Origin: Escherichia phage vB_Eco_QOTSP
Direction: 5' to 3' (one strand)
DNA length: 64,000 nucleotides
Sequence record: OY720014
The number at the start of each line of letters is the position of its first letter. Within the stretch, counting starts at the first letter, position 1. Made by a program: the position numbers and the translations under genes. This document shows positions 1,770-22,126 of this stretch, piece by piece. The notes under the pieces are model-generated. The model saw nothing but the letters and a program-made list of their open reading frames with translations. It did no database searches and had not been told where the DNA came from.

Positions 1770-2327
1770 TTATGGCCTCTCATACACGTAGCTTCTCAGT
1801 TTATTAGCCCAACGACTCCAATTTCCAACTATAGTTTTAGTATAATTTTTAACGAGAGTTTTTCTTACTAGAGCAGGAGGATCTGTCGGTTCAGTAGTAT
1901 CAGAAGATGACCTAGAATTACTACCAGAACCTCCAGATTCACTTTGTTCTTGGTAGTCATATATTAATGTTACTTCGTAAGTGAATGTCTTCTGGAGATT
2001 TTGAGGAGCTTTCCACAAATACAACTGAGTATCAGAATCAGTAGGAAGTTCTTCCCATGAAGCAGCAGTTTTAAATTCATCGCCTAAACGATATTTCAAC
2101 GCGTCATTTCCGAAACCAAATACAGATTCATATGTTCCATATAAGCGATTTTCTTCTACTAAAACCCCAGGAGTTTCTTCGTAACTAGTTATATTTATAG
2201 ATACTAACGTTTCACCTGTTTCTAATTGAGCGGTAAAGGTGACGTCGATAGAAGAACCTTCCATGGATTCTCCTAAATCAGCGCTCATTGGAAGTATATT
2301 AGCCAATGTCAATCCTCGATCCATCAA
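1770..2327 (-). CDS. 5.1: gp5.1-like protein (185 aa)
   Basis: ORF between 5 and 5.4, overlapping the gene 5 stop; synteny with T4. Confidence 0.6.
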
Positions 2328-4026
2328 TTGTGTATTGACCAGATGAAATAGAACTCATAGATGCCATTTTTTCTGTCCAATCACCACCAACGTCCCAATC
2401 AACTGTCCCAGCAACTTTCCAAGAAAGATTTCCATTTACTGTATTAGTCTGATTTCCTTCAACTAAAGTGGTAGCATCTCCTTTAACTGTAATGTCAGCA
2501 TTACCTTCAACTACAATAGTAACATTACCTTTAACTAGGATAGTTCCATTACCTTCAACCGTCTTAGTTTCATCGCCTCTAACAAATATCGTATTGCTTC
2601 CATCTATTTGGTGAAGACGATTATCCATGTTGTAATAAATTTCTGATCCACCGACGTTAGTCTTTTTATCACCGGCTACCAAAAAATTACCATCAGCATT
2701 GGTTATATCATACAAATTATCAACAGTTTTTCTTGTTCTTCTTCCTGACGGTGATACTTCTTCATAAGTTCCAGTTGGATGAACTAATCTGTATCGTTCT
2801 TGCCCAGGGGTATCATCAAATTCCTGAATATGTCCACTTTCAGTTTCCATTGTATGCACATAAGGATATTCGCCTTTATATGAAGAAACTGGTTCTTTGA
2901 ATAAAATTCTCGAGTCATTTGGAATAGGAGGGTCAGCAGGGTCAGAAGATTTAGCTACAGTCGCAGCCATTGCCGATAAAGACCTAGCTGGAGTTTTCAC
3001 TTCAACACCATATGATTCCAAATTCCCCGTAAGAATAATCATGGTAACACGGGATGCACGGCCTTTTGTTTGTTGATACCACAATGAATCACGACCGGCT
3101 TTATATGCTTTTTCCCAATCTCCTGCTAACATAGCAGTTAACATTGTGTTAAATTTAGCTACACCGCCAACACCCATCTGAAATGCCATATTTTCTAATG
3201 CCATTTGACGAGAACGGTTGACAGCTTGCCAGACTGGTCCTACTTTAGAATGCGATTTAATGTCACGTTGCATATCAGCCAAATCACGCTCAAATAAAGT
3301 CGTCGCTTCTTCCATTGTAATAGAACCTGGATTTCCTGTAATTTCACGACCAACTTGTTTTGATAAAACTTTATTAATTTGAGCCATATCACGAACTGGC
3401 TGCTTCATGATAAGATGACCAATACCAATTGTCGGATATCCTTCAGTATCCCAATAAACTTTTAGTCTTAATCCTTCATCACGGCGAAGCATTTCAGCCA
3501 TTGACATGTTTGGATTATCATCAGTTGGAATCTCTGATAGTGGTCTATCATCGGGATTTATTGCGGTGTCTAAGTTACTATCTTGAATAACATTAGAAGA
3601 GGAATCATATCCTACTTCTCCGCCTTGGTTTAGTACGTTAGTATCATTTCCTAAACGTCTAGGATATTGCCCAGTTGGGTCAGAAAATCCTTCAAGTCTA
3701 TTCGGTTTTTCGCGAACTATTCCACCATACGTGCCAAGGACAATTCCGTTAGTTTTCCATTTGTCTAAAAAATGACCATAAACTCTAGTTCCTTCTACCG
3801 GTCCAGTAACAGAACCTCCAATTCCTGACATTGCTGCAGAAGTTATAGGTTGAATAACTGACATCCATGGTAATTTTTCAGTTGGAATACCCATTACATC
3901 ACCTTGTGCTCTTTGTGGTGGATGCAGACCAACCACACGAACACGAACACGACCTAATTTTAATGGGTCCATTCTATCTTCAACAACACCAACAAACCAG
4001 TTGAGGTTATTACTTATCATTTCCAT
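2299..4026 (-). CDS. 5: gp5 baseplate hub subunit / tail lysozyme (575 aa)
   Basis: 575 aa; internal lysozyme domain (EMLRRDEGLRLKVYWDTEGYPTIGIGHL) paralogous to gene e; C-terminal VxGxxxxx beta-helix repeats. Confidence 0.95.
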   Translation of the reverse strand: MEMISNNLNWFVGVVEDRMDPLKLGRVRVRVVGLHPPQRAQGDVMGIPTEKLPWMSVIQPITSAAMSGIGGSVTGPVEGTRVYGHFLDKWKTNGIVLGTYGGIVREKPNRLEGFSDPTGQYPRRLGNDTNVLNQGGEVGYDSSSNVIQDSNLDTAINPDDRPLSEIPTDDNPNMSMAEMLRRDEGLRLKVYWDTEGYPTIGIGHLIMKQPVRDMAQINKVLSKQVGREITGNPGSITMEEATTLFERDLADMQRDIKSHSKVGPVWQAVNRSRQMALENMAFQMGVGGVAKFNTMLTAMLAGDWEKAYKAGRDSLWYQQTKGRASRVTMIILTGNLESYGVEVKTPARSLSAMAATVAKSSDPADPPIPNDSRILFKEPVSSYKGEYPYVHTMETESGHIQEFDDTPGQERYRLVHPTGTYEEVSPSGRRTRKTVDNLYDITNADGNFLVAGDKKTNVGGSEIYYNMDNRLHQIDGSNTIFVRGDETKTVEGNGTILVKGNVTIVVEGNADITVKGDATTLVEGNQTNTVNGNLSWKVAGTVDWDVGGDWTEKMASMSSISSGQYTIDGSRIDIG

Positions 4027-8376: not shown

Positions 8377-8410
8377 GTTTACACGGGGTTTTAGTAGTGA
8401 TACTATTACC
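8377..8410 (+). promoter_or_regulatory. early promoter (PeSL-type)
   Basis: GTTTAC -35 and TGATACTAT -10 inside a palindrome. Confidence 0.6.
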
Positions 8411-8424
8411 CTATCAAAACAAAT

Positions 8425-8676: not shown

Positions 8677-8712
8677 GTTTACTTTTAGATAGGGTAGTGA
8701 TACTATTACCCT
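8677..8712 (+). promoter_or_regulatory. early promoter (PeSL-type)
   Basis: GTTTAC then perfect palindrome ATAGGGTAGTGATACTATTACCCTAT containing the -10. Confidence 0.6.
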
Positions 8713-8734
8713 ATCAACTACTGAGGAGAATAAA

Positions 8735-8920: not shown

Positions 8921-9331
8921 ATGAGTATTAACGAATATTATGTTTATGCCGGGGATTATGCAAATCCTTCTCATTTTGAAGGTAATTTAATACCTGATAA
9001 AGTTTTTAATACTCCTTTTGAAGCGTGGAGTTGGATTGAAAGTAAAAATGGATTTTCTTACCGTTATGTTGAAGTAACTGATTGGAGAGGAACTAAATAT
9101 CCTAAAGACCATTATTACGTAAATCCATCTAAGGTAAATTTTCTTTTATTCGCAGGTGATAATTATTATCCTTGTGGTGGATATGATGATTTAATTGCGT
9201 ATGCTGAAACAGAAGATAAACTGCGTGATATCATTAAAGAAAATGAAAATAAACCGGATTATGGTTCCAATCGCTTTGACTGGTGGCAAATCGTAAATGC
9301 CCATACTCATGCTATCGTTGATAGAGGCTGA
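8921..9331 (+). CDS. hypothetical protein (136 aa)
   Basis: ORF abutting the previous stop; no recognisable motif. Confidence 0.5.
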   Translation: MSINEYYVYAGDYANPSHFEGNLIPDKVFNTPFEAWSWIESKNGFSYRYVEVTDWRGTKYPKDHYYVNPSKVNFLLFAGDNYYPCGGYDDLIAYAETEDKLRDIIKENENKPDYGSNRFDWWQIVNAHTHAIVDRG

Positions 9332-9405
9332 CAATGATTCTTTATGCTAAAGTACTACCTTATAGGAATGATATTGCTTAAATTAATATTGAGGTAGCTG
9401 AGACT

Positions 9406-9786
9406 ATGAAATTAATTAAATCGGGTGGAACCAGATGGGTACTACTAACACGTAAGTATGCTATTAAGTTCCCTATCCCCAAGACATGGAAACACTTCGT
9501 GCAGGGTATGCTCAGCAATCTTACAGAAGGTCAGTGGAAGGGGTATGATAACAAGCACCTATGCCCAATAGCATACTCAAACAGATTTGGTCTCATGGTT
9601 GTGATGCACAAAGCAGAGCCAGTTGAGGATAAGGAGCTTTTTAAATCTGATTTGCAAAAGCTCTATAATGATGTTGATGGTGATGAATGCAGAACGCTTG
9701 ACCGTGATTTCTTTGAGTATGATGCCTTTCCAAAGAACTTTGGCTACTACAAAGGTAGATTGGTCAAGATAGACTACGGAGTGTGA
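9406..9786 (+). CDS. hypothetical protein on an inserted, higher-GC cassette (126 aa)
   Basis: ORF with own GAGG RBS; codon usage visibly more G/C-rich than neighbours; flanked by direct repeats at about 9328-9354 and 9783-9809. Confidence 0.55.
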   Translation: MKLIKSGGTRWVLLTRKYAIKFPIPKTWKHFVQGMLSNLTEGQWKGYDNKHLCPIAYSNRFGLMVVMHKAEPVEDKELFKSDLQKLYNDVDGDECRTLDRDFFEYDAFPKNFGYYKGRLVKIDYGV

Positions 9787-9788
9787 TA

Positions 9789-10079
9789 ATGATTCTTTAT
9801 GCAAAAGTATCATCCATTGAAAATGGATATAAATATGATCAAGAAGCAGCTAAAGCCTTGATTGATGATTATGGCATTTTAACATGTTTTGAAGTTGAAA
9901 AGGTTTACATTGACCGTTCATCTTCTCAGGTTAAATTAGTAAAAGAAGACCGTAAATTTAATACAGTAAATTTTGATTTCTTTATTGAAACAGAAAAAGG
10001 TCCTCTTGAATATGATATTTTCAAGAATCCTTTGGGTCTTGAATGTATTCAGAAAACGTATATTAATGCAGCGTGGTGA
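9789..10079 (+). CDS. hypothetical protein (96 aa)
   Basis: ATG at 9789 (MILYAKV...); its first ~22 nt are duplicated upstream of the inserted cassette. Confidence 0.5.
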   Translation: MILYAKVSSIENGYKYDQEAAKALIDDYGILTCFEVEKVYIDRSSSQVKLVKEDRKFNTVNFDFFIETEKGPLEYDIFKNPLGLECIQKTYINAAW

Positions 10080-10676
10080 AAATGAATATTTGTTTAGGTA
10101 CTACAATTCCGCAGGGTTACGTAATTGATGTCACTACCTGGGAAAATGATGGTGACAACTATAAAACTAAAACACTGTTTGGCGTAGAAGAGCATGAAAT
10201 CTTACAATTCCAATATCTTTTAAAGAAGTTTAAAAGCAGACATTCTAGTACTAAAGCTGAACGTTATTGTGGTAATGGCTTGTTCAGCGAGCAATCGCTT
10301 TTTATTTATGAATACTTGGTTGAAGGACTGTTCTCAGAACAACTTTATCCAGAATTCATTAAAAAGGTAGCAATCGCTTTTTATTTATGAATACTTGGTT
10401 GAAGGACTGTTCTCAGAACAACTTTATCCAGAATTCATTAAAAAGGTCTTTGACATAGAAGTTGACCTTGGTAATAAATCCGAAGAAGACGAAGAACGTG
10501 TATTTGACTTATTCTTTGTGAATGGTAATAAAGTGCTTGAAGGACTTATTAATATTTTAGGCAGTGCTTCTGAGTATTATGATTATGATTTTTTGCGTGT
10601 AGTTGAGAGTGTTAAATACTCTTATATAGAAAAAGAAATTGTTTTGCCGACCGTTAAAATGTTTAATTTGCTTTAA
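10073..10676 (+). pseudogene. hypothetical gene split in two by a 79-bp perfect tandem duplication (ORFs 10073-10390 and 10395-10676)
   Basis: Units 10290-10368 and 10369-10447 are identical; 79 is not a multiple of 3, so the first ORF terminates in copy 2 and the second re-reads the same peptide (LVEGLFSEQLYPEFIKKV) from a TTG. Confidence 0.5.
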
Positions 10677-10762: not shown

Positions 10763-10835
10763 TGGGAATTAGCCAAGTTGGTAAGGCACTGGATTTTGAT
10801 TCCAGGATGCAAAGGTTCGAGTCCTTTATTCCCAG
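10763..10835 (+). tRNA. tRNA-Gln (anticodon UUG); no encoded CCA
   Basis: Cloverleaf by eye: acceptor TGGGAAT/ATTCCCA, anticodon stem CTGGA/TCCAG, loop TTTTGAT, T-loop GGTTCGAGTCC. Confidence 0.8.
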
Positions 10836-10836
10836 C

Positions 10837-10923
10837 GCGAGAATGGTCAAATTGGTAAAGGCACAGCACTTAAAATGCTGCGGAATGATTTCCTTGTGGG
10901 TTCGAGTCCCACTTCTCGCACCA
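10837..10923 (+). tRNA. tRNA-Leu (anticodon UAA), long variable arm
   Basis: Acceptor GCGAGAA/TTCTCGC, anticodon loop CTTAAAA, long variable arm, encoded CCA. Confidence 0.8.
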
Positions 10924-11002: not shown

Positions 11003-11048
11003 ATTTATGACTCGTCGTGAGACGCTCAGTTCTTTATTAGGGACTGAT

Positions 11049-11657
11049 ATGCATTTTTATCTTTATAAAATAACAAATAAAATTAATAATAAAATTTATA
11101 TTGGTGTGCATTCTACCGAAAATTTAGATGATGGATATATGGGTTCTGGTAAATTATTAAAAAGAGCCCAAGATAAATATGGTATAGAAAATTTTTCTAA
11201 AGAAATATTAGAGTATTTTGACGATAAAGAATCTATGCTTGAAGCCGAGAAAAATATTGTCACAGAAGAGTTTTTAAATAGACCAGATGTGTATAATTTA
11301 AAACTTGGAGGTGAAGGTGGATGGGATCATATAAATAATTATCCTATGACAGATCAGCAACGCGAATTAATTTCATTGGGTGTTAAAAAGGCGCATTCTA
11401 ACGGAAAATTAAAAGGATGGTCTTCAAATGGATTAATGAAGAATGGCTTTGCTGGTAAAACTCATTCTCAAGAAGCTAAACGTAAAATAGCAAAAGCAAA
11501 CGAAGCAAAAGTTTCTGCGGATGAAAGAAAAAGAAGAATAGAAATTTCTAAATTATATGATTTTTCTAAACGTGGCGAATTGTCTAAATATGCTAAGCAT
11601 ATTGGCGTAAGTCATACTCAAGCAAAAAGAATTCTAAATCAAATTAACAATATATAA
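11049..11657 (+). mobile_element. segB: GIY-YIG homing endonuclease (SegB-like) inside the tRNA cluster
   Basis: N-terminal FYLYKITNKINNKIYIGV GIY-YIG motif and basic C-terminal DNA-binding region; splits the tRNA genes; track ORF begins at 11007, ATG at 11049 preferred. Confidence 0.8.
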
Positions 11658-11836: not shown

Positions 11837-11911
11837 GGCCCTGTAGCTGGAAGGTTCAAGCAAGCGACTCATAATCGCCAGATGGTGGTTCAATTCCACC
11901 CAGGGCCACCA
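11837..11911 (+). tRNA. tRNA with CAU anticodon (Ile, lysidine-type as in T4, or Met)
   Basis: Acceptor GGCCCTG/CAGGGCC, anticodon loop CTCATAA, T-arm GGTGG/CCACC, encoded CCA. Confidence 0.7.
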
Positions 11912-21580: not shown

Positions 21581-22126
21581 ATGAGAAAAGCACTACTCGC
21601 TGGTCTATTGGCCATTTCAATGATGGCACATAGCTCCGAGCATACTTTCAGTAATGTCCAACTCGATAACATGCGTTACGCGTATCAATTCGGGGAACAA
21701 TTTTCTAAGGATGGAAAATATAAAACACACAAAAATATCCACAAGAGCGGATTAGGTCATATAATGGCTGCTATTTTATGGCAAGAAAGCTCTGGCGGAG
21801 TTAATTTAAAATCTAAACCAAAGCATCACGCCTACGGAATGTTCCAAAATTATTTGCCTACTATGCGAGCAAGAGTTAAGGAACTTGGTTATAATATGAC
21901 CGATGCTGAAATAAAAAGAATGTTGAATAAACGGTCCAATTCAGCTTCCTGGGCGTACATTGAACTTTCTTATTGGTTAAATATACATAAGGGCGATATA
22001 AGAAAAGCAATATCCTCTTATAATTCGGGATGGAATGTTAAAGCAGGTTCTAAATATGCTTCTGAAGTCCTAGAAAAGGCTAATTACCTTAAAAATAATA
22101 AACTTTTGGAAATAGTAAATGACTAA
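21581..22126 (+). CDS. secreted protein with lytic-transglycosylase-like core (181 aa)
   Basis: N-terminal signal peptide MRKALLAGLLAISMMAHS; ES...GMFQ segment resembling SLT-domain catalytic region. Confidence 0.5.
   Translation: MRKALLAGLLAISMMAHSSEHTFSNVQLDNMRYAYQFGEQFSKDGKYKTHKNIHKSGLGHIMAAILWQESSGGVNLKSKPKHHAYGMFQNYLPTMRARVKELGYNMTDAEIKRMLNKRSNSASWAYIELSYWLNIHKGDIRKAISSYNSGWNVKAGSKYASEVLEKANYLKNNKLLEIVND

Follow-up and report, generated by a model that had tools for sequence, protein, structure and literature searches.

Is the gene ahead of the tRNA cluster in Escherichia phage vB_Eco_QOTSP truly broken into two reading frames, or does the break belong to the assembly? The question is raised by a tandem duplication of 79 bp at 10290-10447 of the window (the whole stretch of 64,000 nt analysed here). 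The duplication is a sequence feature of the record. In biological terms, it is most probably not real, and we consider it quite likely that the second copy is a product of assembly or finishing and not phage sequence.

The window is a Tequatrovirus (T4-like) genome in the orientation opposite to the T4 map, and the best phage record for its first 25 kb is 97.8% identical. A 921-nt query matched 665 phage records, mainly of Escherichia and Shigella phages; among the matches listed for it, the best were slur07, AndreasVesalius, and teqhad (~99%). The split gene is the final protein-coding gene ahead of a cluster of ten tRNA genes. The features of the locus are as follows:

9783-10079, plus strand: homologue of T4 trna.2 (Phage_T4_Y07B, phrog_2023), the directly upstream neighbour of the split gene
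10082-10390, plus strand: ORF1, 102 aa, with native residues 1-96, then the out-of-frame residues AIAFYL and a TGA stop
10290-10368, plus strand: first copy (copy 1) of the 79-nt unit, spanning gene nt 209-287 and thereby codons 70-96 in the native protein of 171 aa
10369-10447, plus strand: second copy (copy 2) of the unit, matching copy 1 at 100% over 79 nt
10395-10676, plus strand: ORF2, 93 aa, with native residues 79-171, read from a TTG 4 nt past the ORF1 stop
10763-10836, plus strand: tRNA-Gln(ttg), the downstream neighbour and first gene of the ten-gene tRNA cluster
10837-10923: tRNA-Leu(taa), phage-encoded

An earlier note on this DNA had described the duplication as perfect, and this was confirmed by all methods used. 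Direct string comparison and a repeat search agree that 10290-10368 and 10369-10447, 79 nt each, are 100% identical. Tandem Repeats Finder gives a period of 79, 2.0 copies, 100% matches, 0 indels, and a score of 316 for 10290-10447. The repeat has 0 extension on either side, as the left flank is G at 10289 vs T at 10368 and the right flank is C at 10448 vs A at 10369. Microhomology at the duplication endpoints is 0 bp, and the junction is blunt at 10368/10369. It reads ...CATTAAAAAGGT / AGCAATCGCTTT..., also given as ...GAATTCATTAAAAAGGT / AGCAATCGCTTTTTATT..., and in the single-copy form ...AAAAAGGT would continue directly into CTTTGACATAG. For a blunt random join, the computed odds of zero chance extension are ~53%. 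The chance expectation for a 79-nt tandem match is ~2e-40 in the 64 kb window at the given base composition. For periods of 20 to 300 in this window, the runner-up exact run at the same spacing is 24 nt, and the 79-nt duplication is the sole repeat of such kind.

As 79 = 3 × 26 + 1, reading of the second copy is shifted by one base (+1), and the gene is split into two ORFs. GGTGA stands ahead of the ORF1 ATG at 10082, and this ATG overlaps the upstream gene's stop; a GTG at 10073 is the alternative start. Both starts are in use among the relatives, ATG in slur07 (171 aa) and GTG in AndreasVesalius (174 aa), and many relatives annotate a hypothetical protein of one or the other length at this locus. 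The earlier note had proposed that a gene of ~174 aa is broken into ORFs at 10073-10390 and 10395-10676. Both ORFs were found, and deletion of one copy reopens a single frame of 525 nt that encodes 174 aa from GTG 10073 or 171 aa from ATG 10082. That VEGLFSEQLYPEFIKKV is encoded twice was also correct, with ORF1 holding residues 1-96 and ORF2 residues 79-171. The single-copy gene is identical to that of phage slur07 (516/516 nt), and its protein is 100% identical to a protein of vB_EcoM-UFV05. The arrangement has the form of a tandem duplication: it is head-to-tail, comprises tens of bases, and disrupts the frame (79 nt, +1 shift, two ORFs).

The protein of the split gene belongs to PHROG 2290, where no function is assigned, and the single-copy protein had no match in Pfam or PADLOC. 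By tblastn, it was found in 573 phage records, and in 572/573 of them one place covers at least 80% of the protein. The records include Tequatrovirus, straboviruses of Klebsiella, Enterobacter, and Aeromonas, and some jumbo phages; a profile search gave 213 homologues. In 60 sequences, a near-invariant TTWENDGDNYKT motif is located near the N-terminus, with E, N, D, and the second D being invariant. A GN in mid-protein and an RVVES-like motif near the C-terminus are conserved as well. The AlphaFold2 model of the single-copy protein (P0001) is confident (pLDDT 92.2, pTM 0.85) and combines a beta-hairpin at the N-terminus and a strand at the C-terminus with several helices. It has no fold match in the PDB, and its BFVD matches are uncharacterised phage proteins only.

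The split gene might still be functional if the two fragments reassembled, or if ribosomes either re-initiated at the UUG at 10395 or reached it by a hop from the UUA that precedes the stop of ORF1. All native residues are still encoded, the ORF1 stop is just 4 nt ahead of the TTG, and UUA and UUG are both readable by the phage tRNA-Leu(taa). However, the sequence upstream of the TTG (GCAATCGCTTTTTATTTATGAATAC) contains no Shine-Dalgarno sequence, and the arrangement occurs in no relative examined. Moreover, the N-terminal hairpin and the C-terminal strand are part of one compact, confidently predicted domain and, hence, likely work together. The ORF1 product, without helices 108-133 and the conserved C-terminal strand, would probably be non-functional. 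A split protein or a UUA-to-UUG hop is conceivable on paper, with nothing observed in support, and we regard a functional split gene as extremely improbable.

The earlier note had considered a two-ORF layout common to all relatives and had suggested a search for the single-copy allele. The former was not found, as none among the relatives examined has the duplication, and the latter is present in all of them. A 50-mer spanning the junction had 0 matches among 50,697 phage records, and the exact junction patterns were not found in IMG/VR, JGI metagenome contigs, or GTDB genomes. The junction is in none of 24 fetched loci, 11 of which contain the exact 79-mer, once in each. All megablast matches listed (40/40) are split into two pieces and span ~79 nt less than the query. 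The blastn alignment to AndreasVesalius breaks exactly at 10368/10369, with subject positions 21805-21883 (79 nt) used twice. The remainder of the window is collinear with a close relative and aligns with no unpaired coding indels. The exact products of ORF1 and ORF2 (the latter also with M as the first residue) are not on record, and no similar DNA was found in complete E. coli genomes and a plasmid collection. Absence from independent assemblies of close relatives and restoration of the normal sequence upon removal of one copy are both in line with an artefact.

An alternative is a real and recent duplication. Here, illegitimate recombination or a replication error would have doubled codons 70-96, and the resulting +1 shift would have inactivated a dispensable gene. 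The allele would have been fixed by the bottleneck of plaque purification, and its product would be a 102-aa N-terminal fragment without the conserved C-terminal RVVES strand. From the gene content of related phages, the gene is clearly accessory and dispensable, which fits such an event. T4 lacks it, as do five fetched relatives (L005, L006, L009, L010, and L012), and it is intact in most others; for gene absence, window positions 10082-10676 were compared with loci L002, L005, L006, L009, L010, and L012. In the relatives without the gene, no protein gene is called between the trna.2 homologue and the SegB-like gene. The remaining window looks cleanly assembled, and two copies that match at 100% are in keeping with a very recent event.

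Two of the fetched loci carry other broken alleles of the gene, which also fit its inactivation being tolerated. In L004 (9766-10282; JAEJWA010000009.1, GCA_016390365.1, labelled E. coli), a G is inserted at gene position 229, inside the stretch that is duplicated at 10290-10447, and this yields the same 93-aa ORF2 started from TTG. In L007 (2156-2670; ERZ27286912 k141_205737), a C is missing at gene position 354. Both frameshifts are single-base, independent, and unrelated to the 79-nt duplication, and they could be real pseudogenes or sequencing errors. The 93-aa protein P0038 had been a candidate for a second split allele, but its lesion is the single G insertion, and it gives no evidence for inheritance of the duplication.

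Against a real duplication stand the junction, which is in no other genome or contig searched, the length, which equals that of a documented assembler artefact (PMC10438801), and the endpoints, which lack the microhomology that is normal for the slippage type (5-8 bp in bioRxiv 10.1101/2020.03.03.972455). In addition, a perfect direct repeat of 79 bp should be lost quickly by homologous recombination in T4 and be short-lived, and a real allele would, therefore, have to be very recent. Altogether, we consider a real duplication unlikely. A more far-reaching version, in which the duplication is real and among several independent knock-outs of the PHROG 2290 (TTWENDGDNYKT family) gene in circulating T4-like phages, is very unlikely. 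If it were true, one would suspect that selection on some hosts has repeatedly acted against the gene. As 79-bp repeats can recombine, the allele would be readily reversible, i.e., a one-step OFF able to return to ON.

A biological comparison is with the microhomology-mediated tandem duplications (MTDs) of yeast, 55, 68, and 92 bp in length, which have 5-8 bp of homology at each end (bioRxiv 10.1101/2020.03.03.972455). As in QOTSP, they are head-to-tail, comprise tens of bases, and frameshift and inactivate a gene. MTDs can revert precisely, and their repeated tract runs past two copies owing to the 5-8 bp ends. In contrast, the QOTSP tract has exactly 2.0 copies and 0 bp of microhomology; identical stretches of 5-8 bp at both endpoints, as expected for slippage or microhomology, are thus missing from the 79-nt duplication.

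The comparison also bears on a reversible ON/OFF switch, in which recombination or slippage would often add and remove a 79-bp copy, so that phages with the gene on and off occur side by side. In yeast, tandem duplications of similar size are rapidly reverting frameshift alleles (~1e-4; bioRxiv 10.1101/2020.03.03.972455), and two perfect 79-bp repeats would be a good substrate for copy loss. However, the copy number of the unit is constant in the relatives examined, each of which has a single copy, and hundreds of phage records have the uninterrupted protein and none the junction. A sequence context that promotes both gain and loss, as in phase variation, was not found at the locus, and with no microhomology at the endpoints, regain would not be frequent. 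As loss would be easy and re-formation rare, the repeat would not act as a two-way switch. The slippage-prone switch suggested in the earlier note, hence, finds no support and is highly improbable.

GLFSEQ: The earlier note had also seen the peptide GLFSEQ twice in the unit and took this repeat as favouring slippage. One of the coding stretches is indeed inside the unit (10325-10342), but the other (10277-10294) straddles its left edge. These stretches share 12/18 nt at a spacing of 48 nt, not 79. Relatives of 80-85% identity read GNTPFSDCS, i.e., the first GLFSEQ motif is not conserved. On these grounds, slippage driven by GLFSEQ was rejected.

How, then, could an assembly give rise to the second copy? 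De Bruijn-graph assemblers leave the two ends of a contig with one and the same sequence of length k if the genome is circular or circularly permuted, and the facing ends of neighbouring contigs likewise carry a shared sequence of length k. If such ends were pasted together untrimmed, for instance because the genome was reopened at a new start or contigs were ordered against a reference, the outcome would be a tandem repeat of length k with two exact copies and a blunt join. The join may fall anywhere in the genome, here within a gene. In the present case, k would be 79, and the join would have been made by software or by hand. The phage itself would have a single copy, with its 171-aa gene intact and no different from the slur07 gene.

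For SPAdes, overlaps of contig ends have been described, perfect overlaps being n or n-1 in length with n as the largest k (Unicycler, PMC5481147; Chen et al. 2020, PMC7111523). Overlaps set by k also occur at the start and end of circular replicons and need trimming by hand or software (PMC5481147, PMC7111523). If joined untrimmed, such end overlaps would give the exact, blunt, two-copy tandem seen in QOTSP, where exactly two adjacent copies are 100% identical and have blunt ends. Unlike these end overlaps, the QOTSP repeat is internal to the window, and a rotation or a contig join must be assumed. The Phage Annotation Guide recommends checking contigs for duplicated regions.

A case of equal length was reported by Elek et al. 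(2023, Microb Genom; PMC10438801), who found repeats of ~79 bp in short-read-only Shovill/SPAdes assemblies of 7/10 phages. Phage Tokugawa was assembled with two 79-bp repeats, but only one was present by Sanger sequencing. The QOTSP repeat resembles these cases in its length of 79 bp, in having two copies, and in being internal to the genome rather than at true termini. Their repeats were noticed among errors in coding regions, and the QOTSP repeat is within a gene, too. The differences are that Elek et al. dealt with T7-like Klebsiella phages and repeats near or within the terminal-repeat region, which had experimental verification. In QOTSP, a T4-like and circularly permuted genome carries the repeat within an accessory gene by the tRNA cluster, and the case is made from sequence.

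Hence, an assembly artefact is favoured for several reasons. The join is blunt, with 2.0 copies and 0 bp of microhomology. The length of 79 is odd, k-like, and equal to that of the published artefacts. The junction occurs nowhere else searched. Finally, removal of one copy gives the slur07 gene and the vB_EcoM-UFV05 protein without a single difference. A single repeat in 64 kb of clean collinear sequence also fits one closure point. Of the pair, we take copy 2 (10369-10447) to be the spurious one. Thus, among the three explanations left side by side in the earlier note, the artefact is the best supported, the inactivating mutation is kept as the unlikely alternative described above, and the switch is dropped.

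Some points speak against the artefact. The k values of SPAdes and MEGAHIT are odd, but 79 is not the commonest final k, with 55, 77, 127, and 141 being more usual. A dispensable gene is, moreover, a place where a real disruptive duplication could survive. As an artefact can land anywhere, the position in a non-essential gene mildly favours a real duplication.

A spurious copy would mean that the deposited genome has 79 bp too many and that two false ORFs replace one conserved 171-aa gene. Such artefacts spread to protein databases as truncated "hypothetical proteins," and the chief value of the finding is in quality control. A real copy would amount to a minor, recent loss-of-function or pseudogenising allele of an accessory gene and, as such, be ordinary. 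Either outcome leaves the knowledge of T4-like phage biology unchanged.

Several further features of the window were noted. At the locus itself, a promoter scan found promoter-like sites no commoner than in shuffled sequence. Two weak terminator-like hairpins are located at 10278-10299 vs 0.8 expected. One of them (10286-10299; AGCG AGCAAT CGCT, then a T-run; 5 pairs) crosses the left edge of the duplicated unit, and we gave it no weight.

8394-8417 and 8694-8717: These positions hold an exact direct repeat of 24 nt (part of TAGTGATACTATTACCCTATCAA) with GTTTAC before each copy. The copies are upstream of two consecutive small genes and look like a T4-type early promoter.

2452-2559: An imperfect tandem repeat of period 24 (4.5 copies, 73% matches) is located in the gene for the gp5 baseplate hub/lysozyme (2299-4026, minus strand). 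At the protein level, it may correspond to a repeat of 8 residues.

8924-9783: This stretch differs from AndreasVesalius, the closest relative. An extra ORF of 126 aa (9406-9786, phrog_4301) is present between the trna.3-like (8921-9331) and trna.2-like genes. The ORF is also found in loci L015-L024 and is no paralogue of its 136-aa neighbour.

11007-11657: A gene for a SegB-like GIY-YIG homing endonuclease with a weak NUMOD3 match is located within the tRNA cluster, between tRNA-Gly and tRNA-Ser. The exact protein was found in many T4-like contigs.

11837-11911: ARAGORN assigns this gene as tRNA-Met(cat). As the counterpart in AndreasVesalius is annotated as a tRNA-Ile reading ATA, it is probably a lysidine-modified tRNA-Ile.
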